DNA of 64,000 nt, from positions 192,001 through 256,000 of the IMG/VR virus record IMGVR_UViG_3300032312_001422, one strand, 5' to 3'. The stretch comes from a virus (taxonomy: Duplodnaviria; Caudoviricetes). The translations under genes and the position numbers were made by a program. The notes beneath the pieces were generated by a model, which ran no database searches, had not been told where the DNA came from, and worked only from the letters and a program-made list of their open reading frames with translations. Of this stretch, positions 1 to 58,616 are shown piece after piece (the first letter of the stretch is position 1; each line of letters starts with the position of its first letter).

Positions 1-1074
1 CAACGGACTTTGAAAACTTGGAAAGCGTAATATGTTTAGTGAAAAATTAATTGAATCTTTACCGTGCTTGAGTTTCCAGTTATATACCATCTCAAGGAAG
101 CTGTCTAACGTATCCAAGCACAATGCATTAATGGTACACATGACATGCAGGCCGCGGAACTTGCCCGAGTCTAGTAGACGTTCAACATTATTAGTCCAGT
201 CATCAAACACAAGGCCATCTCGAATGTATTCAGCTTGCAATCCTATTGATTCGTTGCTGGTATATAAATCAATTTCTACTCCATCAATTGCAACAAGCAA
301 TCGATCAATATCCACGTCAGTGCCTAGGTTACTGTTGATGGCAAGACGTGTAGAGCTTTTACCTTTATTGGTTTTAAACCAATCAATTAACTTCCAGGTT
401 TCCGCACTCATCAACGGCTCACCGCCAGTGATGCGTAATTCTTTTAGTGTCCTGTGTAGATCTGATTCCCACCATGCATGAAAAGCTTCAACGTACGGAT
501 TTGTTTCTCCAAACTTGTAAAGCTGACTAGCATCATGGGCATGAGTAAAGTGATTGCGGCCATCGCTGACAAGACCGTTATAAGCACCATTGGTCTTGAT
601 GTCTCGGACCCAAGTACTACTGAACGCTGGGTTACAGTAGCTACAGGCAAATTGGCAGGTTCTGTCAAACGCAATTTCCAGGGTTTGGAGATCAATATCT
701 TCGCTGGCGGGTGTTCTAAAGGCATGTGATAAATCCTTGTCATCGTATATAACTGTTTTGTAAACACGATCACTGATGTTGTCTCGGCCAATGTCTTCTA
801 TTTTCCAGCAGTATTCACAACCAGTGGGACGTTCACCTTTTTGCATTTGTTCGCGTTCCATTTTTTTCTTTTGCGTATTATGCAACGCTTTTGGATTACG
901 TGCAACATCCTCTACACTTACTTGGTGTGGCAATGGATGATGACAACTGGTAGTTTGCCCCGATCCTAGCCAAATAGTAGCATTGTACCATTTGGCTCCG
1001 CAGAAGCTTTCTGACTTGATGTCAATTACTCTGCGTTTATACTCTAAATCAGTTTCGTTATTAATTCTGGGCAT
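1..1074 (-). CDS. Radical SAM protein (twitch/SPASM-type), truncated by the left window edge; absent from the ORF track
   Basis: Manual translation from ATG at 1074: MPRINNETDLEYKRRVIDIKSESFCGAKWYNATIWLGSGQTTSCHHP...CEYCW...FDRTCQFACSYCNPAFSSTW...ITGGEPLM. Has the CxxxCxxC and GGEP motifs, is open at both ends where checked, and is paralogous to 1155..2444. Confidence 0.9.
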   Translation of the reverse strand, partial: MPRINNETDLEYKRRVIDIKSESFCGAKWYNATIWLGSGQTTSCHHPLPHQVSVEDVARNPKALHNTQKKKMEREQMQKGERPTGCEYCWKIEDIGRDNISDRVYKTVIYDDKDLSHAFRTPASEDIDLQTLEIAFDRTCQFACSYCNPAFSSTWVRDIKTNGAYNGLVSDGRNHFTHAHDASQLYKFGETNPYVEAFHAWWESDLHRTLKELRITGGEPLMSAETWKLIDWFKTNKGKSSTRLAINSNLGTDVDIDRLLVAIDGVEIDLYTSNESIGLQAEYIRDGLVFDDWTNNVERLLDSGKFRGLHVMCTINALCLDTLDSFLEMVYNWKLKHGKDSINFSLNILRFPSFQSPL

Positions 1075-1154
1075 GGTATTTACATTCGTTCCAAAATTCT
1101 GTCATTTCTGGAAAAGTTTTTAAAAAGTCAGTTTTGCGTCGTTTGTCGTGTTCG

Positions 1155-2444
1155 TTAAAAAAAACGATAAAAGTCTGCACGTTGCAGTTTAACATATTCT
1201 GGGTCTAGATTGCGACCTGCTTTCATCCAATCTATATCTCTACGCATACGCTGTACTTCGTAGTCTTTGAATCCATGGAATGGGTCATCTGCGGTTTCCA
1301 AATTGAGTTCCATCCAATCTGCCACACGTTCTAGCACACCAATGTAGACTTCGGGTAATATTTGTAAACTTTGCCAGGTAGGTGTACGCAACAGCGGAGT
1401 ATCAAACCAAACACGCTGGTAGGTTTTACTATGCACTCGACGTAGGTCGAGTATCCACTCTAGTTGTCGTTGTAAGCCCAACACACTTAGATTGTTCATG
1501 GTAATAATAAATGTCAAACTGTTACGATACGGAATGTCTGTTAAGAAACGACTTACATTATCAGCCATGCGAGAAAAATTTAAACCATGTCTAATGTACT
1601 CTGCATGTCTGGGTTTACCCGAATCTAAACTCACATACTGCATAAAGTGTTCAATCTGGGTTGAACATAATTGCTTGACATAGCCCAAGTACTTGTGAAA
1701 CAATCGGTCTTCTACACTGAAGTTGCTGGTCACATCCAAGTGTAGTTCTGGATTGGGTAGTGCCAACACATAATCAAATACTTTGTAGGTATTCTTATCC
1801 ATTAGGGGCTCACCACCGGTCATGCGGAAATGTTTCAAATGAGGATACAGCTCAGGCCACCATTCCCAGAACGCATCCACGTAAGGATTGTCGTAACTGG
1901 CTGGGATAGGCCTGCGGCGACCAGTGAAGTGCTTGGGATCGTTATGCGGTGTGCTGGTAGGGTATGCACCGTAGTAGTCAGTTTCTTGCATCCAGGTGCT
2001 AGAGAACTGCGGACTGCAATAGCTACACTTGAGATTACATACATGATTGAAATTTACTTCAACATAACTGGGTATCCAATCTTCTGTACCTGTGCTGGAC
2101 TTGATTGCGTTATAGTCGTTGGCGGCCCAGGGTTCTCCTGAGCGGTAATGACGGTCACTGAGATTGCCCATGTCCTCTTGTGTCCAGCAATAACCGCACT
2201 CCTGTGGGCGTTCATTTTTAAGCATGATCACACGTTGATCTTTTTTGTGTGCTGTGTTGTGTAGTGCACCAGGATTGTCTTTTAATGCTGTAGGGTCAAT
2301 TTCATGCAGGGGCGGATGATAACAACTGTTGGTCATACCTGTAGCCAAATGCAAGCTGACTTGTTTCCATTTGGCTAGGCACAGCCCAGGACCCAATAGT
2401 TCCTTCATCTTTTCTGCAGAGGACATAAAATTGCTTTTTGACAT
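1155..2444 (-). CDS. Radical SAM protein (twitch/SPASM-type); the true C-terminus probably extends to 1061 across a +1 frameshift in a T8 tract
   Basis: CNLKCSYC, MTGGEPLM, and N-terminal CLAKW...SCYHP...CGYCW. The ORF stops abruptly at RFF-TAA inside a homopolymer (see finding). Confidence 0.9.
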   Translation of the reverse strand: MSKSNFMSSAEKMKELLGPGLCLAKWKQVSLHLATGMTNSCYHPPLHEIDPTALKDNPGALHNTAHKKDQRVIMLKNERPQECGYCWTQEDMGNLSDRHYRSGEPWAANDYNAIKSSTGTEDWIPSYVEVNFNHVCNLKCSYCSPQFSSTWMQETDYYGAYPTSTPHNDPKHFTGRRRPIPASYDNPYVDAFWEWWPELYPHLKHFRMTGGEPLMDKNTYKVFDYVLALPNPELHLDVTSNFSVEDRLFHKYLGYVKQLCSTQIEHFMQYVSLDSGKPRHAEYIRHGLNFSRMADNVSRFLTDIPYRNSLTFIITMNNLSVLGLQRQLEWILDLRRVHSKTYQRVWFDTPLLRTPTWQSLQILPEVYIGVLERVADWMELNLETADDPFHGFKDYEVQRMRRDIDWMKAGRNLDPEYVKLQRADFYRFF

Positions 2445-2447
2445 TAA

Positions 2448-3404
2448 TTAATCCTCAACTAGAGTAATTTTTTTAGAATAATTGCGATGTATTAACAAGT
2501 TATAGTTGTGATCTAGTATGCTTTGCATTGTGTGGTACATAGTGTTGAGCTCGTTTTTAGATTTGGTTGCCAACGTATCTGTCAACTTGATAATGTGGTG
2601 AAAACGAGTAACTGGATCGTATCCATCGTAATCTTCATCCCAGAAATCGTGGAATGTACGAAATCCCAGCTGACGTAAATAAATTAAATGATTTTTTGGG
2701 CCCATAATTATAAATGGCTTTTTCATCAACATGGGCCTAAATGTTTTTTCTGTGGGGCAAAAAGTATTGCCAGAGGTGTAACTTTCTGCTACCACGTCGA
2801 TCAGTATGTCTGGGTAAAATTCCAACAACTGATCTGTAAATCCCGAAGTATCTTGTTGTCCTGGAGTATATCCATCTTGCGTTTCTAGCATCAATGGCAA
2901 ACTATCAGCAATCGTTGCGAACGTTTTAATTTGTTCTGGCGCATTGGTAAACAGTTCTGTTAATTCAAATAGTTTGCGTGAATCTTCGTTGCGGTAATCG
3001 CCACGTAAATTCACGTACGATTCTGCGGGATACTGTGCCAACAAATGCCCAGCAATGCCAAGGCGGTGCCAAATTGGTCTTCCGTAATATGCTAAAAATA
3101 TCTTATTACCGTTCCATACATGATATTTGCTGTCTACTGGTTTTTTAACCTGTGCCCACTGTAGCAATGATTGGACTCTAATAAAATACTTGTCATGTTG
3201 TTCAATACAATTTCCGCTGTGTATTTCAACATATTTAAAATTGAATTTGTCTAATAGATCATACAAACCCGTTGCTGAACAGCTGGCACCTTCGGTTCTT
3301 GTGTCTATGCTTATTGTGCCACCTTGATTTTTAACTAAGAAATCAACTAGCTCAACTTGGTTCCAAATAAACGTGTCAGCAGTTATTACAGTAAATTTAT
3401 TCAA
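2448..3404 (-). CDS. Putative glycosyltransferase, GT10/fucosyltransferase-like C-terminal motif (paralog family A)
   Basis: IDVVAES...PTEKTFRPMLMKKPFIIMG...LRQLGFRTF..FWDEDYD, shared with 5630, 6666 and 59305. Resembles the GT-B FEN...TEK donor-binding motif. Confidence 0.55.
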   Translation of the reverse strand: MNKFTVITADTFIWNQVELVDFLVKNQGGTISIDTRTEGASCSATGLYDLLDKFNFKYVEIHSGNCIEQHDKYFIRVQSLLQWAQVKKPVDSKYHVWNGNKIFLAYYGRPIWHRLGIAGHLLAQYPAESYVNLRGDYRNEDSRKLFELTELFTNAPEQIKTFATIADSLPLMLETQDGYTPGQQDTSGFTDQLLEFYPDILIDVVAESYTSGNTFCPTEKTFRPMLMKKPFIIMGPKNHLIYLRQLGFRTFHDFWDEDYDGYDPVTRFHHIIKLTDTLATKSKNELNTMYHTMQSILDHNYNLLIHRNYSKKITLVED

Positions 3405-3921
3405 TCAAAAATCCAGAAATCTGTAATGTAAATTTATTTTGTAATCCAGCATTGGCACTAAGATGTTCTACAGAACTGTCCCATTGCAATCCTTCACCGG
3501 CACGCCAGTGTGTACTGACTTCATTGTCGTACTGTATAAAATGTCCCAGTTTCCAATCTTCCAAATAGATATTGGATCGAACTTTGATTTCTTTTCTGTC
3601 AGGATAATTTTTATTAATTTGAAAAAATGTATCTCTATGTAACGGAATCATGCAACCAGGTTCTTGTAAAATACTACTGACCATAATGACTTCCATGTTC
3701 AGCTGGCGGCCAAATTCTTCGTAGTCTACTTGTGTACGATCCCACCAAAGCTGATGTATTTTGGTATTGTCATAATTGAATGTGTTTGGGTAGCCGCCGT
3801 ACTTTTGATAGATATCATCAAGTTCTTTTTTCTGATGAGTCATGCAACTACCTTCGTGCTGGTTGTAGTCAGCTGCCAGTATAGTGGAAAAATCGTAATC
3901 TAAATTTATTTTATTAATCAT
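3397..3921 (-). CDS. 2OG-Fe(II)/cupin-fold dioxygenase
   Basis: PGCMIPLHRD (HxD) ... WRAGEGLQWDSSVEHLSANAG (distal His); 174 aa. Confidence 0.7.
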   Translation of the reverse strand: MINKINLDYDFSTILAADYNQHEGSCMTHQKKELDDIYQKYGGYPNTFNYDNTKIHQLWWDRTQVDYEEFGRQLNMEVIMVSSILQEPGCMIPLHRDTFFQINKNYPDRKEIKVRSNIYLEDWKLGHFIQYDNEVSTHWRAGEGLQWDSSVEHLSANAGLQNKFTLQISGFLIE

Positions 3922-3922
3922 A

Positions 3923-4804
3923 TTAAAACCTTGTGGGTATTTTACTAGGGTGCCAAAACTTTGTTAAATCTTGTCCTTGTAATATCAATGCTGTGGCTTG
4001 CTCAGTCCACTCTTGTGTTGCTGGATCTATTTGAATGTCTAGTGCAACTTTGTTTAGATATTCTAAATATTCGGTTGGTATTGGATGCGTGTCGTAACGA
4101 TGTAAAAATCTATTGCTAAACAGATGTGTTTCGTTTATTTCACGGTGAATTTCTGCATCCAAATTGGTAAAATCTTGATTGGTGAATTGTTTCCACGTGG
4201 GCCAACTATCCCCACGTTTTATTTCATATTCTTCTTTTAATTTTGCGTTGTCCAAATAGCCTTTTCGGCTGTACCAGTCGCAATTAAAAATTACTTCATA
4301 AACACTAGGAGCAACTGTGGCCAGTTCTTCTCTGTATAAATTACTTATCTTATTGTCTATGCTAAAAATTTTAAACACATTATCGTCAGGCACATTAAAT
4401 GGCACAATACTAAAGAAATAGTACTGGCAACCTATTGCATCTAATACAGCTTTGGCGCCAGCCAGGTGTGCTGTGTCACGCAACAAGTATCCGGTTGGAT
4501 CGGTAAATTTCTTAACAAAATTCTCATCGTAGTCGGTTTGATTGTATATGCTTCCGGGAGTTAGCCACTCGCCCCCAACATAACGATCCTCACGGCCAAT
4601 ACTGCTCCACATGATCATTACTACATCATCTTGGGTTATCTTGTTACGCTTGTGACATTCCATTAGGCTGTAAAAGATAAAACTATTGCCGGCGCCGGGT
4701 TGCCCCCAATTTTGATAATGAGTGTACTGTCGTGCCACTATGTCAGCCCAGGTAGGATGTTTTGATCTGGTGAACGAGCAACCGAAAGCAAAGAATCTTG
4801 TCAT
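3923..4804 (-). CDS. SGNH/GDSL-fold hydrolase or acyltransferase-like protein
   Basis: N-terminal FAFGCSFT (block I Ser), NWGQPGAGN (block II) and C-terminal DTHP (DxH). Confidence 0.65.
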   Translation of the reverse strand: MTRFFAFGCSFTRSKHPTWADIVARQYTHYQNWGQPGAGNSFIFYSLMECHKRNKITQDDVVMIMWSSIGREDRYVGGEWLTPGSIYNQTDYDENFVKKFTDPTGYLLRDTAHLAGAKAVLDAIGCQYYFFSIVPFNVPDDNVFKIFSIDNKISNLYREELATVAPSVYEVIFNCDWYSRKGYLDNAKLKEEYEIKRGDSWPTWKQFTNQDFTNLDAEIHREINETHLFSNRFLHRYDTHPIPTEYLEYLNKVALDIQIDPATQEWTEQATALILQGQDLTKFWHPSKIPTRF

Positions 4805-5637
4805 TTTGTTAGTACGTTATTATAATGTAAAATCACACTTTCGTCATCCTGGGCAGTTGGACACATGGTACATACCTGATGTGGTCGACCATAATTGTTT
4901 AGGAATGCCGCTATATCAGAATCTGGGCTGTCCGGAGTAATGTACTTGCCTTTGTATGGATCCCATGCAGGATCTACGTTGCCAAAACGATCCAGTGTTT
5001 GTTCTAGGCCGCCCAAGGTACTGCACTTGTACATGCGACCATTGAACATCAACGGACATTTCTGTTGCATACAGATATTGAAACTGTCTGCCGGGTTTGA
5101 GTCAAACGGCATCATGTTAGGATAGTCGTTCCGGTAGTACTTGATAAATGTCAGTGGACGATTGACTTGAAAACGCAAACCATTTGTAGTCTTGTATCGG
5201 TATATACCAAACTCGTACACAGGTTCCCACTTGTACATTGAGAATATTTTAGCTATTACGTTTTCAACACGTTCGCTGTGTTGATGCACAGTAATTTTAA
5301 AAACAAAGTTGCCCACTTCGTGTGCTGTTTCTACAACATCCAAGTGCCGGTCCAATAGCTCTCCATTGGTACTAAAGCGTATAGGGCTTGTGGGTAATAA
5401 CTCACGTAGGCCACGTATCCACAGTTTGAGTTCAGGGTTGATCAAGGGCTCACCTCCCATGATACCGAAGTCTTCAATTGCCATTCTGGGCAACCACGAT
5501 TCTATTTCTTGACGGCCGTCTGCCCAAGGAACATAACCTGTGTGTTTTAAGTCAGCATAATTACTGCACCCAACACAACTCAGGTTACAAAATTGTGTAA
5601 CCATCATTTCTACAAAAGGTAAGTGATGTTTAGTCAT
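4801..5637 (-). CDS. Radical SAM protein (MoaA-like core with C-terminal Cys cluster)
   Basis: CNLSCVGC, MGGEPLINP, STNG; auxiliary Cys residues in CMQQKCP...YKC...CTMC. Confidence 0.88.
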   Translation of the reverse strand: MTKHHLPFVEMMVTQFCNLSCVGCSNYADLKHTGYVPWADGRQEIESWLPRMAIEDFGIMGGEPLINPELKLWIRGLRELLPTSPIRFSTNGELLDRHLDVVETAHEVGNFVFKITVHQHSERVENVIAKIFSMYKWEPVYEFGIYRYKTTNGLRFQVNRPLTFIKYYRNDYPNMMPFDSNPADSFNICMQQKCPLMFNGRMYKCSTLGGLEQTLDRFGNVDPAWDPYKGKYITPDSPDSDIAAFLNNYGRPHQVCTMCPTAQDDESVILHYNNVLTK

Positions 5638-6676
5638 TGAATGTGTTCTGTATTTGTTGATGTGTTAGTGCCATGAATACATTATAGTTATGATCAAGTA
5701 CGGATTGCATATTGTTTAGTGTTGTAATTAGTTTTTCTGGACTCCATAGACCAATGGTGTTGATTAATTTTAATATTTCTCGTACACGCCACTGCATACC
5801 ATATTCATCATAACCTTCGTCCCAAAATTCATTGAATGTTTGAAATCCTAAGCGACGCAGGTTAGCCAAATGATTTCTACCACCCATGGTAATAAATGGC
5901 CGACGTGCCAGGATAGGACGCCAAGTTTTTTCTGTGGCAAAACAAACCTCATCACGCACAAATGTTTCATGCACAATGTCAACAAATATATTATTATAGT
6001 ATTGTAATATATTAAGATTTGCTGGCAATTGTATAGGATAACAATCATCCTGTTTGATATATGTAGACATGTTTTTGATTGCTTCTATTTCTTCAGGAAT
6101 AAATTGAGGACAGGTTTTTAAAAATTCCACAGCCACGTCAATTTGATCACATTCCATTTTAACTAAATCTTCTAATCCTACAAAATCACAAAGGCCATCA
6201 TTTTTTACCAAATAGTGTGTGCCAATGCCAGTATTATATGTTTGGAATGTTTTGTCTCTAAAGTTTTTATGCAATGCTGATGCTATCCACAATCTATTCC
6301 AGTTGCTTTTTCCAATAAAATGTCCAAAATGTAAATTGGGGTGTTGTCCAGTATCTACTGAGTTATTTGTCAGCCACTTTTGTATAACTGGAAGTTCGAA
6401 CCAGGCACCAGCATCTTTTACGATTGTGTACTCAGGGTGTTGCTCGATCATGTTGCCTGTACGTATACTAATGTTCTGTTTATTGTATCCGGTGTGTTTG
6501 CAAAACGCATCTAGATATCTGTACAATCCGCATCCTTCCAAACTTGATCCTTCTGGGACAACTGTTAATTTTGCAGAGTGTTTGTTGTTTAAGCAATCGT
6601 ACAGGTGCATAACCAACAAGTCTTTACGCCAAAACTTATTGTCATTGATGCCAACGTGATATTCTTTATTCAACAT
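5630..6676 (-). CDS. Putative glycosyltransferase (paralog family A)
   Basis: VDIVHET...ATEKTWRPILARRPFITMG...LRRLGFQTFNEFWDEGYD. Confidence 0.55.
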   Translation of the reverse strand: MLNKEYHVGINDNKFWRKDLLVMHLYDCLNNKHSAKLTVVPEGSSLEGCGLYRYLDAFCKHTGYNKQNISIRTGNMIEQHPEYTIVKDAGAWFELPVIQKWLTNNSVDTGQHPNLHFGHFIGKSNWNRLWIASALHKNFRDKTFQTYNTGIGTHYLVKNDGLCDFVGLEDLVKMECDQIDVAVEFLKTCPQFIPEEIEAIKNMSTYIKQDDCYPIQLPANLNILQYYNNIFVDIVHETFVRDEVCFATEKTWRPILARRPFITMGGRNHLANLRRLGFQTFNEFWDEGYDEYGMQWRVREILKLINTIGLWSPEKLITTLNNMQSVLDHNYNVFMALTHQQIQNTFND

Positions 6677-7628
6677 AGGTTATTTGAGTAGTAAATTTTT
6701 TACTTAATAGCAACTCGTAGTTGTGATCAAGTACGGATTGCATGTGATTGTACATATCTTGTAATTCTGCGTGTGACTTGTTGGCCAATGAATCGATCAA
6801 TGTCAGTATTTTTTTGTATCGATGTTCTGTGTTGTGTCCATCATAGCTTTCGTCCCAAAATTCATTAAATGTACGAAATCCCATTTGCCGCAAGTGTATT
6901 AAAAAACATTTTGGACCCATTACAATAAACGGTTTTTTCATCAGCATAGGTCTTACAGTTTTTTCTGTAGGATAAAATGAACGTCCCGCAACAAAAGTTT
7001 CTACTACCACATCAATTAAAAAATCAGTATAAAATTCACAGAGCTGATCAGTGTGATTAACTACAGTATCGCCAATTGTACACCCATCCACAGTTTCCAA
7101 CTGTACAGGAAAATCTTTATAACAATTCATAAAAAATTGTAACGATTCTGGATCTACTTCAAATAGTTTTTCTAATTCAAACATTGGTCGCTGATCTTTA
7201 TTGTGCGGATCGAATCTAAAATTTAACAATGTTTTGTTGTAATATTTGGTATGCAAATAACTGGCCAATCCCACTCGGGGCCAAGTTGGACGATTGTAAA
7301 AAACACCAAATTGTTTTGCACCTGACCATGCGTGATACTGACTATAGTCTATTGTTTCTGGCACTACAAAATACTGAAACGCATCTCTATGTACAACTAT
7401 TTTATAGTTATTATTTGACTCTACTATATTGTTTGTACATATTTCAACTGATTTAAAAGAAAAAAAATCCAATAATCGATACACTCCCAAATTTTCTAAA
7501 CATGCACCTTCAGGTATGGCAACATGAATTGATTTTCCTTGCCAATCTATCAGGAATTGTACCAATTCATCATAGTTCCAGATTGTGGTATCATTTATGT
7601 TGAGAATAACTTCGTTTTCAAGTTTCAT
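6666..7628 (-). CDS. Putative glycosyltransferase (paralog family A)
   Basis: IDVVVET...PTEKTVRPMLMKKPFIVMG...LRQMGFRTFNEFWDESYD; close paralog of 2448..3404. Confidence 0.55.
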   Translation of the reverse strand: MKLENEVILNINDTTIWNYDELVQFLIDWQGKSIHVAIPEGACLENLGVYRLLDFFSFKSVEICTNNIVESNNNYKIVVHRDAFQYFVVPETIDYSQYHAWSGAKQFGVFYNRPTWPRVGLASYLHTKYYNKTLLNFRFDPHNKDQRPMFELEKLFEVDPESLQFFMNCYKDFPVQLETVDGCTIGDTVVNHTDQLCEFYTDFLIDVVVETFVAGRSFYPTEKTVRPMLMKKPFIVMGPKCFLIHLRQMGFRTFNEFWDESYDGHNTEHRYKKILTLIDSLANKSHAELQDMYNHMQSVLDHNYELLLSKKFTTQITYVE

Positions 7629-8335
7629 ATATAGTTATTTTTTATCAAATGATCGTGCAACTGGTCTGCATATTGTTGGTGTGCAATTGGCATTGGATGT
7701 AACGTATCATCAAATGCATTGAGTTTTTTAGCAACACCATGCAAACATACATCAGTAAAAAAGTTTTTATCATCAATCATATTATATAAACTGTCACATT
7801 CTTTTATGCGTGATAAAGGCCGGTACGGTATAAAAACATAAGGAATATTTGTTGCTTTTAATGTGTTTTGTAAAGATATTATTTTTACAATAGTAGAAAA
7901 AATATGGTCTTTAAGGCCAGTTACTTTATAGTACTCATGTACCACGCGACCTAGGCTATCATCTTTTTTGCGATTTAAATGACCTCCCCCAAACACCCAA
8001 TTTTTTTGTACGTAGTCTTGATCATTGATTGGAAATATTTTTTTACTGGGCCAGTCATTTTGCTGACTTTCATAGTATGATGTAGTTTTAATGTCGCTAA
8101 ATTGGTGAATATTTCTAACTCTGAAGTCAAATCTTTCTGCATAAGACCACATAATCAATACAAGGTTGTATGGTCGCTGACTGATTTCAGCCACAGTAGC
8201 TTCATGTATATATGTGTTGCCAGCACACGCCATTGATAAATTTACAATGTTACAATTTGGTATTTTTTCCTGTAACAGGTAAGGCCAGGACCCTTCTCCG
8301 CGGGAGACTGAACTTCCATTAATTAGTATATTCAT
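7625..8335 (-). CDS. SGNH/GDSL-fold protein
   Basis: LINGSSVS (block I), NLSMACAGN (block II) and C-terminal DTLHP (DxxH). Confidence 0.6.
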   Translation of the reverse strand: MNILINGSSVSRGEGSWPYLLQEKIPNCNIVNLSMACAGNTYIHEATVAEISQRPYNLVLIMWSYAERFDFRVRNIHQFSDIKTTSYYESQQNDWPSKKIFPINDQDYVQKNWVFGGGHLNRKKDDSLGRVVHEYYKVTGLKDHIFSTIVKIISLQNTLKATNIPYVFIPYRPLSRIKECDSLYNMIDDKNFFTDVCLHGVAKKLNAFDDTLHPMPIAHQQYADQLHDHLIKNNYI

Positions 8336-9231
8336 TCTCTAACCATTGGTCCTTGATTTTTAAATTGGCTCTTATAGTGATGCTTAAAAAATTTACTTTC
8401 CTCAGGATCCATGTCCACAATAGGTAAACCAAGACGTGTGCGTAGGGCTTCTCCTACACCCCGGCATTGGTCCGGACCATCTTGTTCAAAACTTTTCCAC
8501 AACATTGCTAGGATATCAAAATCCTGTACTTGTCGATGATCCCATCCTTCCAACATCATCATGTATGTGCCAAGTCGTGCTCCGTAAATGGCCCAAAAAC
8601 CATTTTCAACATCTGCTCCTACGCTTTGCCAAATGCACAAATTATCATAGTTGCGAGTATTGACACGACTTTCAAATTCCTGCAAGGAAATCTTTGCTCC
8701 ACGGTCCAGTGCCATCTTCACACCCTCGCGGAATCCGGCTCGCCATGCCTGATAAGGTGTTGCATTGGGATAGGTAGTTGAGTAGCAATCATTCATTGAC
8801 CAATAGTCAGGATAAAAACAAAACTCTACATCATTTTCTGCAGACCCATCTGAGGCTTCGTGTGTACGCATTGAATAGATAAAGTCCTTGGTCCAACAAC
8901 TCATTCCCCCGTTGCCGTATAAAAGACCATTGATAATGTTACGAGCTTTCCAACGAAACACACAGTCATTACTACCACTATCCAGTTGAAGTTGGAGGTT
9001 GAAAAAAGCGGGATCAGGAACATTGTCCCCATCAATGATAATAAACCGATCGGTATCGCTGTTATCAGCAGCCGCTTTATGTGCGGCATCCGATCCTTTA
9101 ACCCCGTCCACTCGCTTGGCCCAGGGCACCATGTTTTGTATTTTAATCCAATTAGTTTCTTTATTAGGTTCATCATAAGTTAGGTATATGCAGTCTAGAT
9201 CTGCAACGTCAATTAATTGTTTTTCTGTCAT
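8332..9231 (-). CDS. GT-A fold glycosyltransferase-like protein
   Basis: DCIYLTYDEP...RVDGVKGSDAAHKAAA...FIIIDGDN (DxD after a hydrophobic strand). Confidence 0.6.
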   Translation of the reverse strand: MTEKQLIDVADLDCIYLTYDEPNKETNWIKIQNMVPWAKRVDGVKGSDAAHKAAADNSDTDRFIIIDGDNVPDPAFFNLQLQLDSGSNDCVFRWKARNIINGLLYGNGGMSCWTKDFIYSMRTHEASDGSAENDVEFCFYPDYWSMNDCYSTTYPNATPYQAWRAGFREGVKMALDRGAKISLQEFESRVNTRNYDNLCIWQSVGADVENGFWAIYGARLGTYMMMLEGWDHRQVQDFDILAMLWKSFEQDGPDQCRGVGEALRTRLGLPIVDMDPEESKFFKHHYKSQFKNQGPMVRE

Positions 9232-9577
9232 AATATTCTATATCTTGATATTGTTCATTGGGCGCCAATGCCAGTGCAGCCAGACCTCGAACCACTGGTT
9301 GACCGGTGTTGCTTTTTGCAAGATGCGTTCGTGTTATCTTTGTGTCGATGATTTTTAGTTCGCCGTTGATTACACGTAATCTGCTGGTGTTGGTTTTAAA
9401 AAATACATCGGGATTGTCTATCACAATGTAATTGGTGTCAGGCGGATGAGCAGTTTCACAGTACATGGTAACGTTGCCTTCTTCGTCATAGTATATCCTG
9501 GGCTCTGTGATCAGTACGGGACGTTGACGATTGTATTCTTCAACCAATTGTAGTGCTTCAAGCAATTCTGGATTCAT
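9209..9577 (-). CDS. Hypothetical protein (122 aa)
   Basis: Overlaps both neighbours within the operon; no recognisable motif. Confidence 0.7.
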   Translation of the reverse strand: MNPELLEALQLVEEYNRQRPVLITEPRIYYDEEGNVTMYCETAHPPDTNYIVIDNPDVFFKTNTSRLRVINGELKIIDTKITRTHLAKSNTGQPVVRGLAALALAPNEQYQDIEYYDRKTIN

Positions 9578-10409
9578 ACCATTCTTTCATTTCGGCTGTG
9601 ACAAAATCTTTTTCAAAATAGTGTAACGGTTGTAGTTGGTTTACGTTGTTGATACGAATCATACCCGAATCGAACTCTGTAACCAATTGGTCAGTTACTG
9701 GTGTAGTTTCTTCTATACCATTGATTGCTGGCTTTAGATGTACAAAGTTTAAGAAATCCATGCTGGGCATTGTACAAGTTTCTTGACCAACCATAACAGC
9801 AGCCAGGGCGTACATCACATCTGTGCTGGGTTCAGTCTCAACACAATGTTTAAGACCTGCACGTACATACTCCCAATTCTGTTGTATATACTGTGCAGCA
9901 TCAAAGAACTGTTTGGCTTCTTGACTAAATCTAAAATACATCAAGCCGTTATACACGTCTGGCAAACGGTTTGCATCAAACAGTTCTCTATACCAGCGTA
10001 CAGTACTGTTGATACCTAAATAATTTTTGCATCCGTGGCTTAGACAAACGTTCTTTAATCTAAATGCTGTCCACCAATGATCAATTGATCGTGTAAACAG
10101 TAAGTCAGACTCTAGTTTAATAGTTTCTTTAAATGGTGTAAGTCGAAACACTTGCCATTCGTTCGCAAACTTTCTAGTACTGGCAGAGTCATTATGATCC
10201 ACGGGAAGATCAATAACATAATCAAAAACACGACGATGACGTTCATTTACTTTCTCCTGAGTAGCAGTATCAACAATGACTGCATATTTGTTTTGTGTTT
10301 GAGTTGCTTTGATATTCAATGCTTGTATATAGGCCAATTCAAGATAATCTATATCCTGTGTGTTTTGTGCAAAAGTTACAAAACCTTGTTGTTCTTTATG
10401 CTGTGACAT
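9558..10409 (-). CDS. Nucleotide-diphospho-sugar transferase-like protein (GT-A, GT8-like)
   Basis: GFVTFAQN...DYLELAY...TPFKETIKLESDLL...PDVYNGLMYF...STDVMYA; paralog of 10396..11184. Confidence 0.55.
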   Translation of the reverse strand: MSQHKEQQGFVTFAQNTQDIDYLELAYIQALNIKATQTQNKYAVIVDTATQEKVNERHRRVFDYVIDLPVDHNDSASTRKFANEWQVFRLTPFKETIKLESDLLFTRSIDHWWTAFRLKNVCLSHGCKNYLGINSTVRWYRELFDANRLPDVYNGLMYFRFSQEAKQFFDAAQYIQQNWEYVRAGLKHCVETEPSTDVMYALAAVMVGQETCTMPSMDFLNFVHLKPAINGIEETTPVTDQLVTEFDSGMIRINNVNQLQPLHYFEKDFVTAEMKEWYESRIA

Positions 10410-11184
10410 TGTTAATAAACTCTTTAAAATTATTGCTTTGTAAATATTGTTTGCTCATTACGTGCATGTTCATTCGTGGAACCACATAAGCAGTTTTCTG
10501 ATCTTTGATAATTACTCGATTGCCTTGCAATACAATTGATTCAATTGGTTGTAGTATGTTCAGCATGGGTCCTGGTATACTGACATCAGAAACAGCAAAC
10601 CCATTTAGTATTATGTCGGCCATGGCAAATGCATAATCGTTTCTGTAACTTCTACTTTCCGCATTAAACAATTCTCTGTAGTAGTGATAGTTGGCTTCAA
10701 TTCGTTGCACCAAGTCAAAAAATACCTTGGCACGACTGGTTTTTCTAAATGCAAAAACCGTGGCCCACACATAAGGTAAACTGTGAGCACCCATAACACC
10801 AGGTACATATTCATCATTTAAACTTCTGGCCGATCGTTGCAACAGGTAATCCCAGGGCAAATCAAATATTTTTAACAAGCCGGCATCTTGTACCACATAG
10901 TCCACATCAATAACCAAGGTTTCGTCATATGGGCTTAACTCATAACAGAGATTGCGACCAAAATTTTTCCATTCAACTGGTTGACCAAGATCCACATCAT
11001 GTCTGTAGTTATGCCAGTTTTTATCAGCCCTGTGATCTTCAGTGATGATGGTATAAGGTAAATCTAATACCCGAGCAGCCAATGCAACAGTTTGCTCAGC
11101 AATAGCCGTATAGTCTGTGGTTGCTGTGTTGATAGCAAACGCAACAATACCTCTAGATTTTTCTGATCTGTTTGAGTTCTGCAT
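10396..11184 (-). CDS. Nucleotide-diphospho-sugar transferase-like protein (GT-A, GT8-like)
   Basis: GIVAFAIN...SPYDETLVIDVDY (DxD)...VWATVFAF...YRNDYAFAMA. Confidence 0.6.
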   Translation of the reverse strand: MQNSNRSEKSRGIVAFAINTATTDYTAIAEQTVALAARVLDLPYTIITEDHRADKNWHNYRHDVDLGQPVEWKNFGRNLCYELSPYDETLVIDVDYVVQDAGLLKIFDLPWDYLLQRSARSLNDEYVPGVMGAHSLPYVWATVFAFRKTSRAKVFFDLVQRIEANYHYYRELFNAESRSYRNDYAFAMADIILNGFAVSDVSIPGPMLNILQPIESIVLQGNRVIIKDQKTAYVVPRMNMHVMSKQYLQSNNFKEFINNVTA

Positions 11185-11467
11185 GTTCTTGATGCCAGCG
11201 GTTCATTACTTTTTGATAGTGTTCTCTACACAAAGTCAACAATTCAATTCGATCAACTTCAATGGGATTGTGATATGTATCTTCAAGATAAACTGTGTTG
11301 TTGGGCCATGTGGTTAAAAAGCCAATCAACTCTGTGGTAACAAAAAACAAGCCACCGTTATAGGCAACGTGTAGGTCTGTTAGAATCTTTTCACGTAGGA
11401 TTTGTTTGTTGATTTGATAATCGGTGGCAAGACGCACTTGCTCAACAAGTTGATTGATATCTGACAT
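11153..11467 (-). CDS. Hypothetical protein (104 aa), first gene of the accessory operon
   Basis: Lies directly downstream of the sigma70-type promoter and overlaps the next gene by 32 nt. Confidence 0.75.
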   Translation of the reverse strand: MSDINQLVEQVRLATDYQINKQILREKILTDLHVAYNGGLFFVTTELIGFLTTWPNNTVYLEDTYHNPIEVDRIELLTLCREHYQKVMNRWHQEHAELKQIRKI

Positions 11468-11480
11468 AGTTAAAATAGAT

Positions 11481-11518
11481 AGAATAAAGGCATAGTATAG
11501 TTTACACTAACTATGCCT
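11481..11518 (-). terminator. Intrinsic terminator after the tail fibre operon
   Basis: Minus strand AGGCATAGT-TAGT-GTAA-ACTA-T-ACTATGCCT followed by TTATTCT; GNRA loop. Confidence 0.65.
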
Positions 11519-11544: not shown

Positions 11545-12540
11545 TTAAATCGAACTAATAGTTACCGCACCCCAGGTATTGCTTAGATTTGTGGTTGACG
11601 GGAAGCTGACATCAACTGTTCTGATCACGTTGACACCAAATGAGTCGTCAAAACTAAAAGTGCCATTGTCGCCACCGGAAAATGTTTGTATAACAGTCCA
11701 AAAATCCACGTTGATACCGTTACCGTTGTTGCTGCCTTGGCTGCCATTGGGGTTTACATAAACATAAATCTTATTTGATGTATAGTTGGCTGTGGTACCG
11801 GTAATATCAATAATGGTATTATTGGAATCGAATGTACTGGTCCAATATCCAGGAGCGGTACTGTTGGTGACCACTGTACCAGACGATCCGGTCCGACCAC
11901 CGTTGGTATTGGCACCAAATGTGGCTACGCCGCCTGCAAATCCTAATAAACTAATAATTGAATTGGTACGACTAGTGGTACTGGAATTTTGTGTTCCACT
12001 TAGATTTAATTTTAGACGTCCGCCAGCATTGAAGAAATAACGAGCTTGGTCAGCACTGGCAAAGGTGCATCTGGTACCAAATGCTCTGGTCACACTGGTC
12101 ACACTGGATCCACCAGCGGGTGGATTTGAGCCGGGTGGAGATACGGTCACGTTCCAGGCCGTGCTTAAACTGCCGCCCACTGCTGTGGCCACTGCCAAAT
12201 TTGAGGCAAATGATAATCTTGAGGTGTATGCAGCAGCAATTATTGTGGTTAGATTGCTCAAAAAATCAACTTTATTACCGGATACCACTGGGAGAATTTC
12301 TGATACAGATCCGGTTTGATGTGCTCTGGCGCTGTTTAGATTGTTGATCAAAGTGGCCCATTGTGTGGCTGTGATTGTGTTGGTAGCAGCAACTTGACTT
12401 ATAGCAGTCTGCCCATATCCAGCACTTCCAGAACCGACAGCCCATACAGTATTGATACGGTTGGTGGTGCTACCGGGACTGGTACCTATTAGATTATTAT
12501 AATCTGAAGCATCAATTTTATCGCCTTGTGCATAACTCAT
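11545..12540 (-). CDS. Virion structural protein (tail/baseplate-associated)
   Basis: Thr/Ser/Gly/Asn-rich 331 aa protein at the end of the fibre operon; RYFFNAGG motif. Confidence 0.6.
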   Translation of the reverse strand: MSYAQGDKIDASDYNNLIGTSPGSTTNRINTVWAVGSGSAGYGQTAISQVAATNTITATQWATLINNLNSARAHQTGSVSEILPVVSGNKVDFLSNLTTIIAAAYTSRLSFASNLAVATAVGGSLSTAWNVTVSPPGSNPPAGGSSVTSVTRAFGTRCTFASADQARYFFNAGGRLKLNLSGTQNSSTTSRTNSIISLLGFAGGVATFGANTNGGRTGSSGTVVTNSTAPGYWTSTFDSNNTIIDITGTTANYTSNKIYVYVNPNGSQGSNNGNGINVDFWTVIQTFSGGDNGTFSFDDSFGVNVIRTVDVSFPSTTNLSNTWGAVTISSI

Positions 12541-12592: not shown

Positions 12593-14596
12593 TTAACCAA
12601 TTCTGGGAAGACCTGCATTTACTCTTAAAACATTAATTTCATCACGTAACTGTTTGATAGCTTCAATGAACAACGGAGCAAAACGCTCGTACTGTACAGT
12701 CAAGTACTGGTCGTCGATTGGAGCTCGCTTGACAATTTCGGGGGCTACTCGTTGTGTGCTTTGGGCACTGACACCCATTTCACGTTGAACTGTGTATCCT
12801 AGTGCTTGTGCAGTTTCATTGGGGTTATAGTAAAAACCCTCTAAACTGCATACCTTGGACAGAGCGTCTTCAATTCGACTCAGACGTGTTTTTAATCTGT
12901 CGTCTGAGAAGTAAGCGATAACGTTGTTGGTAGCACGAATTTCACCGGCAGTTCCTGATGCTGCTGTACCAACTCCTAAACTGTTAACTTGGAAGTTAGA
13001 GCCAGTGTGTAAGTTTTGTGGAGCACTCAAGGTAATATTTCCTGATGCTGCACTGGTAGTAATTTGGTTGGCTGTTCCTGTAACACTTGATACCAAAGTT
13101 TGACTATAAGTACCACCTAGAGCTACACTAATTCCGTTGATAACAATACCGCTGTTGATCAAAGCACCATTTGGAATGCTATTGAAGTTTGTGCCACGTA
13201 GTGTTGGACTAGAATTAATTTCAACGTTTTGATTCAGTGTCCAGGCCGCTGTGGTTGTTAGGCTACCACCTAAAGTAATTGTTCTTACACCATTGTTAAC
13301 ACCTGTACCACCGTATTGTGGTTGTACTGTGGTGGCACTCCAGGTACCAGTAGTAATATTAGCCACGCTGACCAAAGCAGATGCTGTGGTAACGTTGGGT
13401 TGGCTAGCTGTAGTCAATGTGCCTGTTAAAAGTGCTCCAGTATTGCCAATAGTACCTGCTTGTACAGTACTGGCAATAATGGTGCCATTGGACGTCAGTG
13501 CCGCTGTTGTGGTCAGAGCCGATGCTGTTAATGTGGTAAATGCTCCTGTGCTAGGTACAGCATTACCAATTGGTGTGCTGTTAATAGAACTGAAGTTGGC
13601 AGGATCGCCAATTCTGGCAATAGGACTGCCATTGAGTATGGCACTTGCAGCAGTTATGGCCACGTTGCCATTGACATTGAGTGCAGTAAGTGTACCAAGT
13701 CCAGTTACGTTAGGCTGACTGGCAGTTAATAGTGTGCCTGTGTATCCACTTGACGCACTGATACCGGCAGCACGAATAGTGGTTGCTTCTACTAGATCAG
13801 CTGTGACGTTACCGGCAATATTTCCATTGAATGAAGTTGTTGCAATAACAGTTGGCGAAGTGATAAAGTTGGTACCAGTCAATATTGTACCTGTAATTCC
13901 ACTACCGGTGATACCTGCAGATGAGTCGCGTTGAACCAAGGTACTGGCCGTAGCATTGATATCTTGGGTACTTAATACCATGGTTGGACTGGCAATGGTA
14001 CTAAAATTAATACCGGCTTTGACTGTGCTAAATCCAGCTAACGCACTAGGGAAAGTGTCTTTGCTGACGATCATATAAGGAACACCAGCAATTCTAATCT
14101 GTGTGACAATGTGACTACCGCCCAGGGTATCTGTCATCACACTTGGGAAAGCACCAGTGTCGCCTGTAATTGGTGTTGCTGCTGGACCCACTGTGACCCA
14201 GTTAGATCCAGAGTATATTTTTAACTGTTGATTGGTGCTGTCAAACCATAGGTCCCCACCTAGAGCACTTAGATCTCCGGGCGGGCTACTAAATGGAGCA
14301 CTGGTGGCACCTGTTGAAATTTTCCAGCTTGTACCAGAATACACACGTAAAATATTGTTGGTTGTGTCCCACCAAAGCTGTCCGGCTAAGGGATTGGGTG
14401 GGCCTGATGTAGCACCCGAATTTGGGCTGGCAAAATTTTCTAGTAGGTGTACTAGATTTTCGTTTAGTATTTCGCCGTAACCAGCATAGTTTTTACCAAT
14501 CAGAGTTAAACTGGTAGCACTGGTATCTACAGCGCCGTCAGAAAGACCGCCTGCGATTATTTCTGTGCCATTGGTTAAATTAATTGTGTATGCCAT
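12593..14596 (-). CDS. Tail fibre protein with C-terminal intramolecular chaperone (peptidase S74-like)
   Basis: C-terminal FSDDRLKT...GVSAQ...PEIV...YLTVQYERFAPLFIEAIKQL; N-terminal module shared with 14624 and 17992. Confidence 0.8.
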   Translation of the reverse strand: MAYTINLTNGTEIIAGGLSDGAVDTSATSLTLIGKNYAGYGEILNENLVHLLENFASPNSGATSGPPNPLAGQLWWDTTNNILRVYSGTSWKISTGATSAPFSSPPGDLSALGGDLWFDSTNQQLKIYSGSNWVTVGPAATPITGDTGAFPSVMTDTLGGSHIVTQIRIAGVPYMIVSKDTFPSALAGFSTVKAGINFSTIASPTMVLSTQDINATASTLVQRDSSAGITGSGITGTILTGTNFITSPTVIATTSFNGNIAGNVTADLVEATTIRAAGISASSGYTGTLLTASQPNVTGLGTLTALNVNGNVAITAASAILNGSPIARIGDPANFSSINSTPIGNAVPSTGAFTTLTASALTTTAALTSNGTIIASTVQAGTIGNTGALLTGTLTTASQPNVTTASALVSVANITTGTWSATTVQPQYGGTGVNNGVRTITLGGSLTTTAAWTLNQNVEINSSPTLRGTNFNSIPNGALINSGIVINGISVALGGTYSQTLVSSVTGTANQITTSAASGNITLSAPQNLHTGSNFQVNSLGVGTAASGTAGEIRATNNVIAYFSDDRLKTRLSRIEDALSKVCSLEGFYYNPNETAQALGYTVQREMGVSAQSTQRVAPEIVKRAPIDDQYLTVQYERFAPLFIEAIKQLRDEINVLRVNAGLPRIG

Positions 14597-14623
14597 GTTT
14601 TTTCGCTTTGATTATCTTAATAT

Positions 14624-19573: not shown

Positions 19574-20260
19574 TTATCCTATCGAGCTAAGGTTAGTTAG
19601 AGTTTGAATACGCACAGTATAGTCTATTTGAATTAATCGATTTAGTGATTTTTGCACAGGGTGGAATACCACGTGTGTTAGCAACAGACCAGTTGAGGTT
19701 AAACCTGTAGTACCGTCTGTGCTACGACCACGCAAGCCCAATTCATCAAACACATATTCACTGTTTAAGTTTTGACTGTTGTCAAACAGGGCTTGTCCAC
19801 TAGGCTCGCCGTAGTCCAACAAACAAGTAACTAGAATATCTGTGTAAATTGTGCCGGGAATATGTGCCACAGTCATTTTGTTATTGACTGGATCTAGATT
19901 GGCAACCGCGGTATTGTCTACAATTTTACTAAATGTGGGATTGTACAGATTTGAGCTTTGTCCTAGAGTGTTTGTGGGAAGATATGTGATAATACCAGTG
20001 GTGTCAACACTTGTTCCGCCGTTGCCCAAGACCATTTCATAGATAAAATTCTGTCCTTTGTTGGCAACACTACTGGCCAATGCACGGCTAAAGTTTTCGT
20101 AGTGAATAGCGTTGGACTTGTCGATGTAAACTTCACCAGATTCTGGATCATGTATTTTGATATGCCCACGGACATAAATGCCGGATGTATCGTCTGGCTG
20201 TTTTTGTGTATTTTCCACTGCTGTTTCCTCTAAATTTTGTTTGTTATCAGTATTTATCAT
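19574..20260 (-). CDS. Virion structural protein; start revised to ATG 20260 (MINTDNKQ...)
   Basis: ATGA overlap with the stop of the 4194-aa gene; the track start at 20359 lies inside the upstream gene. Confidence 0.7.
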   Translation of the reverse strand: MINTDNKQNLEETAVENTQKQPDDTSGIYVRGHIKIHDPESGEVYIDKSNAIHYENFSRALASSVANKGQNFIYEMVLGNGGTSVDTTGIITYLPTNTLGQSSNLYNPTFSKIVDNTAVANLDPVNNKMTVAHIPGTIYTDILVTCLLDYGEPSGQALFDNSQNLNSEYVFDELGLRGRSTDGTTGLTSTGLLLTHVVFHPVQKSLNRLIQIDYTVRIQTLTNLSSIG

Positions 20261-58526: not shown

Positions 58527-58560
58527 AAAGGAATATCCACCCCAGGGATGGGAAGGAACA

Positions 58561-58584
58561 AAAAGGCTCTTCGGAGCCTTTTTT
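58561..58584 (+). terminator. Intrinsic terminator after gp23
   Basis: AAAAGGCTC-TTCG-GAGCCTTTTTT, with a C(UUCG)G tetraloop typical of T4-like phages. Confidence 0.92.
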
Positions 58585-58616
58585 GTTGGCTGTGTTTTTA
58601 TCATGTAAATATAATA

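Follow-up and report, generated by a model that had tools for sequence, protein, structure and literature searches.

The operon described here lies in a 64,000-nucleotide stretch of DNA (the window), positions 192001-256000 of the IMG/VR virus record IMGVR_UViG_3300032312_001422 (Duplodnaviria; Caudoviricetes), a single contig of 288,815 bp from an uncultured T4-like phage with a genome of ~289 kb. Fourteen consecutive open reading frames (ORFs), g01 to g14, all on the minus strand, fill window positions 1-11467 and form the 5' half of an operon of 27 genes and ~23 kb. This operon is probably virus-encoded glycosylation machinery, a kind of system that is already known, and it is centred on predicted glycosyltransferases of the GT-A and GT-B folds. 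It may work as a soluble cytoplasmic assembly line that glycosylates F0, the fibre-type protein encoded in front of it, and tailors the sugar chain in place. This assignment is tentative, with a chance slightly short of even, and a pathway built on a short peptide encoded in the operon is a live alternative.

An earlier interpretation, made from the DNA letters alone (the sequence-only reading), had proposed a biosynthetic-cluster-like glycan system with an unknown target. The first part is retained in that a glycosyltransferase-centred phage cluster is present and the SGNH, radical SAM and HxD...H assignments hold, and it now has to share the field with peptide chemistry. The second part can be narrowed, as a fibre-type protein lies upstream, membrane segments are absent, and genes of sugar-nucleotide type adjoin the operon.

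Organization of the operon

From g01 to g14, the junctions between successive genes measure -32, -14, -20, -23, -4, -4, -11, -8, -4, +1, -8, +3, and +80 nt. The ORF listing and these junctions bear out the description of 14 co-oriented genes that overlap or lie no more than 3 nt apart, save at the frameshift junction. The sorting of the genes given in the sequence-only reading also stands: three radical SAM proteins (g09, g13, and g14), two SGNH proteins (g06 and g10), three paralogs with a TEKT motif (g07, g08, and g12), three GT-A-like proteins (g02, g03, and g05), one HxD...H protein (g11), and two proteins without an assigned function (g01 and g04). While these 14 genes are real, the operon does not end with them; g14 runs off the window, and the operon extends past the window start for 13 further genes, to genome position 180084.

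In its 3' half, the operon has another three genes for twitch radical SAMs (g16, g17, and g19), a fourth TEKT-like gene (g18), four SGNH-like proteins, the conserved g20, a 180-amino-acid protein without an assigned function, a NodU/TobZ-type carbamoyltransferase (Pfam E 3e-48 and 5e-38), an APS-kinase-like P-loop domain fused to a HIGH-type nucleotidyltransferase, and a gene for a peptide of 33 amino acids. In total, the operon holds six radical SAM proteins, five of them of the twitch type, and six SGNH proteins. A hydrophobic 19-mer with a Kyte-Doolittle mean above 1.5 is found in none of the 26 operon proteins; since none has a membrane-like segment, the operon contains no flippase, polymerase, or polyprenyl-phosphate transferase.

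Just past the operon end lie a gene for a DegT aminotransferase (E 6e-64) and a gene of the NAD-dependent epimerase/dehydratase family, of the nucleotide-sugar type (E 4e-44). The earlier remark that no nucleotide-sugar synthesis genes are visible is thus correct within the window, but the epimerase/dehydratase-family gene stands a short way beyond the operon end. Together with the kinase/nucleotidyltransferase fusion inside the operon, these two genes support the assembly of a glycan on F0. The DegT and epimerase/dehydratase-family genes are convergent with the operon end, as are two others that encode a 388-amino-acid TEKT-like protein and a 611-amino-acid protein with a g05-like C-terminal part.

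Several of the families are without a match in the reference collections. Pfam, PHROG, and NCBIfam gave no match for u1, u4, F0, g20, g25, the TEKT proteins, g02, g03, g05, or the peptide, and sequence-profile searches of the PDB returned nothing significant for the TEKT, g05, g02, u1, g20, twitch radical SAM, and g10 families. Full-text literature searches found no paper that describes a phage operon so composed or the peptide tail, or that names or characterises the twitch family N_Twi_rSAM.

Table 1. Window coordinates of the operon genes g01 to g14, of F0, and of the signals between F0 and g01.
Feature	Position (nt)	Strand	Description
F0 (g00)	11545..12540	-	331-amino-acid fibre-type protein, Ser/Thr/Gly/Asn-rich; candidate glycan acceptor
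sigma-70-like promoter	TTGACA 11527-11522, 17-nt spacer, TAAACT 11504-11499	-	in front of g01
terminator-like hairpin	11488-11518, then U-rich tail	-	in front of g01; overlaps the promoter
g01 (u1)	11153..11467	-	conserved 104-amino-acid protein; opens the enzyme operon; 32-nt overlap with g02
g02 (A2)	10396..11184	-	GT-A-like; paralog of g03; invariant DxD (D93, D95)
g03 (A3)	9558..10409	-	putative GT8 (glycogenin)-like GT-A protein; E100-x-D102 at the DxD position
g04 (u4)	9209..9577	-	122 amino acids; no function assigned
g05 (B5)	8332..9231	-	N-terminal GT-A fold; invariant D67-G-D69; GT2-like YDEPN start; C-terminal helical part
g06	7625..8335	-	SGNH fold; invariant G7-x-S9, G39-N40, H213
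g07	6666..7628	-	TEKT motif; GT-B glycosyltransferase-like
g08	5630..6676	-	TEKT paralog; 31% identity to g07 (E 6e-49)
g09	4801..5637	-	short radical SAM with C-terminal Cys cluster; Pfam Radical_SAM E 4.5e-13, above cut-off
g10	3923..4804	-	SGNH superfamily, DUF6071-like branch; invariant G8-C9-S10, G39-N40, H240
g11	3397..3921	-	H95-R-D97 and H153 invariant in 7 sequences
g12	2448..3404	-	TEKT paralog; 48% identity to g07 (E 2e-99)
g13	1061..2444	-	N-terminal-twitch radical SAM; interrupted by an extra T in a T8 run
g14	1..1074	-	N-terminal-twitch radical SAM; 449 amino acids in full; 3' end 275 nt past the window start

Glycosyltransferase folds

The fold check suggested with the sequence-only reading, which could have refuted it, came out in its favour: the TEKT proteins are predicted to have the GT-B fold (model of g07), and the DxD proteins the GT-A fold (model of g05, and profile of g03 against glycogenin). 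Glycosyltransferase folds are thereby supported for six of the 14 window genes, although the placement of g02 and g03 in GT8 is tentative.

The three TEKT paralogs share 31-48% identity with each other. The alignment-based AF2 model of g07 has a predicted local distance difference test score (pLDDT) of 94.3 and a predicted template modelling score of 0.91, and it shows two facing Rossmann-like domains in the GT-B arrangement. Nearly all of its best 50 rows in Foldseek and VIA-align are GT-B glycosyltransferases. By VIA-align the model scores Z 9.7 with T4 beta-glucosyltransferase, Z 9.6 with AtFUT11 (root-mean-square deviation (rmsd) 3.9 over 199 aligned residues), Z 9.1 with the alpha1,3-FucT of H. 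pylori, and Z 8.6 with FUT9. The motif T221-E222-K223 is invariant in 31 TEKT sequences. None of the 497 TEKT homologs carries a name; g07, g08, and g12 have no Pfam match at E 0.01, and the family profile has none against the PDB at E 10. Because neither Glyco_transf_10 nor a PDB entry is matched by sequence, the TEKT proteins are not filed here as members of GT10.

In the head of the operon, g05 is the most conserved enzyme of the system, with 70% mean column identity in the alignment. Residues 6-164 of its model (pLDDT 79) align to GT-A enzymes at Z 8-9.5. The best 50 Foldseek rows, led by PBCV-1 A64R and SunS, are nearly all of the GT-A fold and mostly glycosyltransferases, and VIA-align gives Z 9.5 with B4GALNT1 (rmsd 3.2, 141 aligned) and Z 9.3 with STIV A197. 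Since nucleotidyltransferases of the same fold score similarly (Z 8-9), it is the DxD motif that favours g05 as a transferase. Feature searches of the ESM Atlas with g05 and F0 returned unnamed viral clusters only.

The paralogy of g02 and g03 is supported at E 5e-7. A profile of g03 built from 28 homologs matches glycogenin-1 chains weakly (E 0.004); the match covers the N-terminal ~100 residues and places the DxD of glycogenin against the E-x-D of g03. The g02 family profile has no PDB match, and neither g02 nor g03 has a match in Pfam. For u1, which is found in 55 related loci, there is no match in Pfam, PHROG, NCBIfam, or the PDB, and the ESM Atlas feature search points to DUF4376 at 0.88, a lead below the trusted level. 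Homologs of u4 occur in 17 loci and match no family; in the cultured phage RsoM2USA and in the minimal loci described below, ORFs of 184-187 amino acids without detectable similarity to u4 occupy the same position.

Conserved gene order and the fibre-type protein F0

A profile search with the TEKT family found relatives in at least 525 viral contigs, and gene order was compared in the 79 loci that were fetched. In ~55 of the 79, the order is fixed as F0-u1-A2-A3-(u4)-B5, followed by a variable stretch of TEKT, SGNH, small radical SAM, and cupin genes, and then by R13-(T)-R14-R16-R17-(T)-R19-u20...carbamoyltransferase. F0 stands directly before u1 in 54 of the 56 related loci that hold the operon head. 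A minimal form without any radical SAM gene is found in three loci, where a T/G/S/N-rich protein of 575-881 amino acids is followed by u1-A2-A3-x-B5-B5'-peptide-carbamoyltransferase. Complete operons including F0 are also carried by two contigs, of 183 kb and 148 kb, that are binned as a Haliscomenobacter metagenome-assembled genome (MAG); these are probably mis-binned jumbo-phage genomes, and several short 'MAG' contigs look alike.

Searches of the cultured-phage collection at the nucleotide and protein levels gave no match for the DNA of the operon, for the TEKT protein, or for F0; only g05 and the radical SAM proteins had matches, and these led to Ralstonia phage RsoM2USA (GenBank MG752970). 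This phage has a split, minimal version of the system, in which all genes are labelled hypothetical. The first piece comes directly after ORF355 and consists of ORF354 (u1, E 3e-8), ORF353 (A2; matches g02 at E 4e-28), ORF352 (A3), ORF351, ORF350 (B5, 39% identity), ORF349 (an R13-type radical SAM), and ORF348. The second piece is ~95 kb away and consists of ORF203 (SGNH), ORF202 (R14-type; 50% identity to g14), ORF201 (SGNH), the peptide, ORF200 (SGNH), and ORF199, a carbamoyltransferase with 46% identity to that of the operon.

In ORF355, residues 98-364 match F0 by profile comparison (probability 96.5%, E 1e-9), and the first 90 residues match the N-terminal anchor of the tail-fibre proteins in the window (E 1e-15). 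The F0 domain therefore belongs to a fibre-type protein, and it accompanies the transferase half. As the transferases of RsoM2USA stay beside the F0 domain and the peptide half lies ~95 kb off, the transferases appear to be tied to F0 and not to the peptide. In published proteomics of RsoM2USA virions, mass spectrometry detected two neighbours of ORF355, the tail tube protein ORF356 and the sheath protein ORF359; ten gel bands were identified, and modifications were not looked for.

F0 of the window is composed of 13.9% T, 13.6% S, 11.2% G, and 10.3% N, and it is preceded by tail-fibre-type genes at window positions 12593-16600, which have Peptidase_S74, collar, and PHROG tail-fibre matches. 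An 81-nt region that holds the hairpin between F0 and u1 folds at -20 kcal/mol (z -4.68), and none of 200 shuffled sequences folds as well. Among 36 distinct F0-u1 spacers of relatives, many were seen by eye to contain a GC hairpin followed by TTTAC...TGTATAAT, and six of the 36 contain the strict pattern TTGAC[AT]-N16-18-TAnnnT. A late-type ATAAATA is found upstream of structural genes and not at the start of the enzyme operon; the exact T4 late promoter TATAAATA was considered and set aside, as it is not enriched in the window and the shorter ATAAATA fits the structural genes. With a terminator-like hairpin and an early-type promoter lying between them, F0 and the enzymes seem to have separate transcripts.

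Radical SAM, SGNH, and oxygenase-like proteins

The five twitch radical SAM proteins all exceed the curated cut-off of NCBIfam model NF033640 (N_Twi_rSAM; 170 bits), with scores of 276.7 (g13), 283.1 (g14), 398.1 (g16), 337.3 (g17), and 292.2 (g19). The short g09 falls outside this family (27.7 bits); its translation has CxxxCxxC near the N-terminus and extra Cys motifs near the C-terminus. In Pfam, a twitch radical SAM protein matches SPASM at residues 8-108 and then Radical_SAM. Four cysteines (C44, C63, C104, and C107) precede C158, C162, and C165, and they are invariant in 26 sequences from all five paralog groups.

The +80-nt junction (window 1075-1154) results from a one-base frameshift in g13. 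In frame 0, a UAA stop at 1155-1157 directly follows a run of eight T (1157-1164); in frame +1, the protein continues for 31 more residues, which match the paralogs at their C-termini, and stops at 1061, where it overlaps the ATG of g14. The site has the look of a 'shifty stop' (UUU UUU UAA C). A programmed +1 frameshift was nevertheless rejected as the leading explanation because five g13 orthologs (up to 93% identity) stay in frame with TTTCTTT in place of the slippery run and encode ~460 amino acids. More likely, the T8 run reflects an assembly error in the homopolymer or the recent insertion of a single base.

Chromosomal N_Twi_rSAM genes of bacteria are concentrated in the predatory Bdellovibrionota, on chromosomes and MAG contigs, in arrays of up to seven paralogs. 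These arrays often include g05-like GT-A homologs and other types of radical SAM, and they come without F0 or the peptide. Their neighbours (further radical SAMs, one of them B12-binding, MoxR, DUF58, asparagine synthase, and an S49 peptidase) gave no clue to the substrate.

As judged from sequence, g06 and g10 are confirmed as predicted members of the SGNH superfamily, since the Ser, Asn, and His blocks are kept and the g06-family profile reaches TesA, the thioesterase I of E. coli, at E 2.8e-7; the g10 and g06 families also match each other by profile-profile comparison (probability 98.7%, E 3.6e-16). The product of g11 is probably a cupin or Fe(II) oxygenase. Its Pfam match to Asp_Arg_Hydrox (E 0.0075) has 16.6 bits and so lies below the cut-off of 22.6, and AtsK is matched at E 0.49 only.

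A proposed pathway and the evidence for its acceptor

A possible scheme for the operon can be described as follows. The head (u1, the two GT8-like GT-A proteins, and the GT2-like B5) would start a sugar chain on F0. The variable middle, which comprises the TEKT GT-B proteins, the SGNH proteins, the probable cupin oxygenase, and the small and five twitch radical SAMs, would then extend the chain and edit it in place; if the radical SAM and SGNH enzymes do act on sugars, the edits could include epimerisation, oxidation, dehydration, or acyl handling. Enzymes from the 3' end would add a carbamoyl group, aided by the Tyr-tailed peptide of 33 amino acids. The acceptor, the order of the steps, and every reaction in this scheme are what we infer from the genes.

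F0 is favoured as the acceptor on three grounds. An F0-type domain accompanies the transferase half in three architectures and in two distant phage lineages, lipid-carrier machinery is absent, and the fold neighbours of the transferases include protein glycosyltransferases of viruses and bacteria, namely A64R of PBCV-1, which glycosylates the capsid, and the peptide S-glycosyltransferase SunS.

Several points weigh against this assignment. An invariant peptide is encoded in the operon, and SPASM/twitch radical SAMs are mostly peptide maturases. The top structural match of the TEKT model is a DNA glucosyltransferase, and B5 occurs with twitch radical SAM arrays of up to seven members in Bdellovibrionota chromosomes that have no F0. 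Judging from the promoter motifs, ATAAATA late promoters appear to serve F0 and the fibres and an early-type one the enzymes, so that F0 and the enzymes do not appear to form one transcription unit. Fibre proteins are often rich in Ser, Thr, Gly, and Asn anyway, and such phages have a plastic 'host recognition' region (PMC7029224), which may be all that the adjacency to fibre genes reflects.

Alternative acceptors and products

The most serious alternative places the peptide itself at the centre. In a pathway resembling those for peptides that are made on the ribosome and altered after translation (RiPPs), the peptide would be the scaffold, the twitch radical SAMs would modify its tail, the GT8 proteins would prime its Tyr, and the other transferases and the carbamoyltransferase would finish a glycopeptide or a small molecule cleaved from it. 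This pathway, which would have parallels in mycofactocin, PQQ, and HypF-HypE, is rather unlikely. The ORF ends in RKRDPFIYK and lies on the minus strand at genome positions 184181-184282, ~7.8 kb before the window start, between two SGNH genes. It fills an apparent 63-nt gap without leaving any space, as its start overlaps g21 and its stop overlaps the start of g22 in ATGA. The peptide is present in nearly every fetched locus that reaches its region, and the minimal loci keep it as well. Its N-terminal part varies, but its final nine residues hardly change. With a DNA pattern for these residues, at least 120 further viral contigs were found. In RsoM2USA, the peptide (...IRKQDPFIYK) is encoded between ORF201 and ORF200 and is unannotated in GenBank. 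In 61 of the 81 loci that have downstream sequence, its gene stands directly before that of the carbamoyltransferase; in another 18, a single SGNH gene lies between the two. The match of the g03 profile to glycogenin, an enzyme that glucosylates Tyr, and the usual role of SPASM/twitch radical SAMs are also in keeping with a peptide scaffold.

On the other side, a conserved peptide and twitch radical SAMs are present, but no signal for a RiPP recognition element (RRE) or PqqD is found in u1 or the radical SAMs, the peptide has no NCBIfam model, and in some loci, among them the minimal ones, it occurs without any radical SAM. The distance between the transferases and the peptide in RsoM2USA likewise speaks against it. 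In addition, the peptide and carbamoyltransferase genes form a pair with no other operon family nearby in 12 of the 36 loci that have at least 7 kb upstream. Of five such lone pairs examined, four sit between the genes for DNA primase and a DnaB-like helicase, and no glycosyltransferase or radical SAM is found within 8-12 kb upstream of these four. Relatives of g05 were not found in five contigs of this primase-peptide-carbamoyltransferase-helicase class, a result that is uninformative as the contigs are 4-22% complete. Judged by the lone pairs, the peptide seems to be partnered with the carbamoyltransferase and not with the transferases.

A combination of both ideas is also conceivable, though doubtful. 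In such a viral RiPP-glycan hybrid, the peptide would be carbamoylated, cross-linked or oxidised by the twitch radical SAMs, and would carry a glycan primed on Tyr by the glycogenin-like enzymes, which would make it a new class of glycopeptide or cofactor-like compound. The product might be loaded onto F0, or it might act alone, for example beside the replisome in the primase-helicase phages.

Remodelling of the host envelope (O-antigen or capsule), by which the phage would block superinfection or alter recognition, is distinctly unlikely. The early-type promoter fits a takeover of the host, and modification of the O-chain is the role favoured for this genome region in related myophages (PMC7029224). 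However, no membrane protein, flippase, polymerase, ligase, or polyprenyl-phosphate transferase is found among the 26 proteins, and the same cassette, which a fibre-type protein always accompanies, occurs in phages of very different hosts, from aquatic T4-like ones to a soil phage of Ralstonia.

Hypermodification of the phage DNA with a glycan or a carbamoylated adduct is still less probable. It would agree with T4 beta-glucosyltransferase as the best VIA-align match of the TEKT model, with the scores for T4 alpha-glucosyltransferase (Z 8.3) and for a glycosyltransferase of phage HY126 (PDB code: 9iqz; Z 8.5), whose entry title names no substrate, with the place of the peptide-carbamoyltransferase pair between primase and helicase in another class of phages, with the very basic nature of the peptide, and with the early-type promoter. 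However, these Z scores lie within 1 of those for GT10 and protein O-glycosyltransferases, and the linkage to the fibre gene is left unexplained. Furthermore, the sole gene of the thymidylate synthase family is a full-length match (E 1.5e-108) that adjoins dihydrofolate reductase (DHFR); it is therefore a real thymidylate synthase and not a hydroxymethylase, and no hydroxymethyl-pyrimidine handle is apparent in the record, which is ~80% complete.

The least probable product is a free pseudo-oligosaccharide or aminoglycoside-like metabolite acting on the host or on competitors: DegT, BtrN-like twitch radical SAMs, a TobZ/NodU-type carbamoyltransferase, a kinase, and transferases recall aminoglycoside tailoring, but no cyclitol or scaffold synthase, exporter, or resistance gene is seen in the operon, and the conserved fibre-type protein and peptide would have no explanation. 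Similar cyanophage genes have been labelled 'antibiotic synthesis genes' (PMC12801897).

If glycosylation of F0 is correct, and the product thus decorates a tail-fibre-type protein, the operon would add a new layer of host recognition or of immune and defence evasion in abundant environmental phages, and radical SAM enzymes would be seen to edit a glycan in a virus pathway for the first time. If instead the peptide is the scaffold, a new class of virus-made RiPP-like natural products would result. The operon takes up to 8% of the genome in such aquatic jumbo phages and in at least one cultured soil phage, and the split minimal version in RsoM2USA makes the question accessible at the bench.

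Related genes elsewhere in the genome

Genes related to those of the operon are scattered over the genome. SGNH/DUF6071-like genes interleave with those for DHFR and thymidylate synthase at genome positions 172479-174897, just before the epimerase/dehydratase-family and DegT genes. A second small pair of an SGNH-like and a TEKT-like gene (window ORFs 58548-59330 and 59305-60291) lies on the plus strand among other plus-strand genes and shows weak paralogy to g22 and g07. More TEKT-like C-terminal domains are encoded at genome positions 35614, 52757, 58616, and 178737. The tail gene block contains a single ORF of 4194 amino acids on the minus strand (window 20257-32841).

Comparison with known systems

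In the mycofactocin and PQQ pathways, a short peptide tail that ends near an aromatic residue is worked on by SPASM/twitch radical SAMs, and mycofactocin is then glycosylated by a GT2 enzyme. HypF, a relative of the NodU-type carbamoyltransferases, carbamoylates the C-terminal tail of HypE. The operon described here is unrelated in sequence to MftA-F, PqqA-E, and HypE, an RRE was not detected in it, and its peptide can occur with the carbamoyltransferase alone. As for glycogenin, the profile of g03 matches the N-terminal half including the DxD site, whereas g03 itself reads ExD, and g02 and g03 are always paired; the likeness does not imply self-glucosylation on Tyr.

The TEKT proteins resemble members of GT10, such as H. 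pylori FucT (PDB code: 5zoi), human FUT9 (PDB code: 8d0o), and Arabidopsis FUT11 (PDB code: 9s6a), in the GT-B fold (Z 8.6-9.6) and in the TEK motif of the C-terminal domain, which binds the nucleotide sugar in GT10. They differ in sequence, their scores are tied with those for T4 beta-glucosyltransferase, POGLUT, and OGT, and the equivalence of the motif to the GDP-fucose contacts is putative. The five twitch paralogs belong to N_Twi_rSAM (277-398 bits) and lie in one phage operon among glycosyltransferases.

In its genomic place, the operon corresponds to what Zaragoza-Solas et al. 2020 (PMC7029224) describe in pelagimyophages and cyanomyophages as the 'host recognition cluster', a hypervariable region that contains glycosyltransferases and tail fibres along with 'cassettes related to radical SAM proteins'. 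That study lists the genes and proposes modification of the host O-chain, without the operon structure, the families, the core, the peptide, or the fibre-type partner. Similar in kind are the glycosylation of virions in mycobacteriophages (Freeman et al. 2023, as cited in PMC12619734) and that of the chlorovirus capsid (A64R, PDB code: 2p6w), in which virus-encoded soluble glycosyltransferases likewise lie beside structural genes. Those systems consist of a few transferases, whereas the operon encodes, besides its predicted transferases, six radical SAM and six SGNH proteins, a probable oxygenase, a predicted carbamoyltransferase, the kinase/nucleotidyltransferase fusion, and the conserved peptide.

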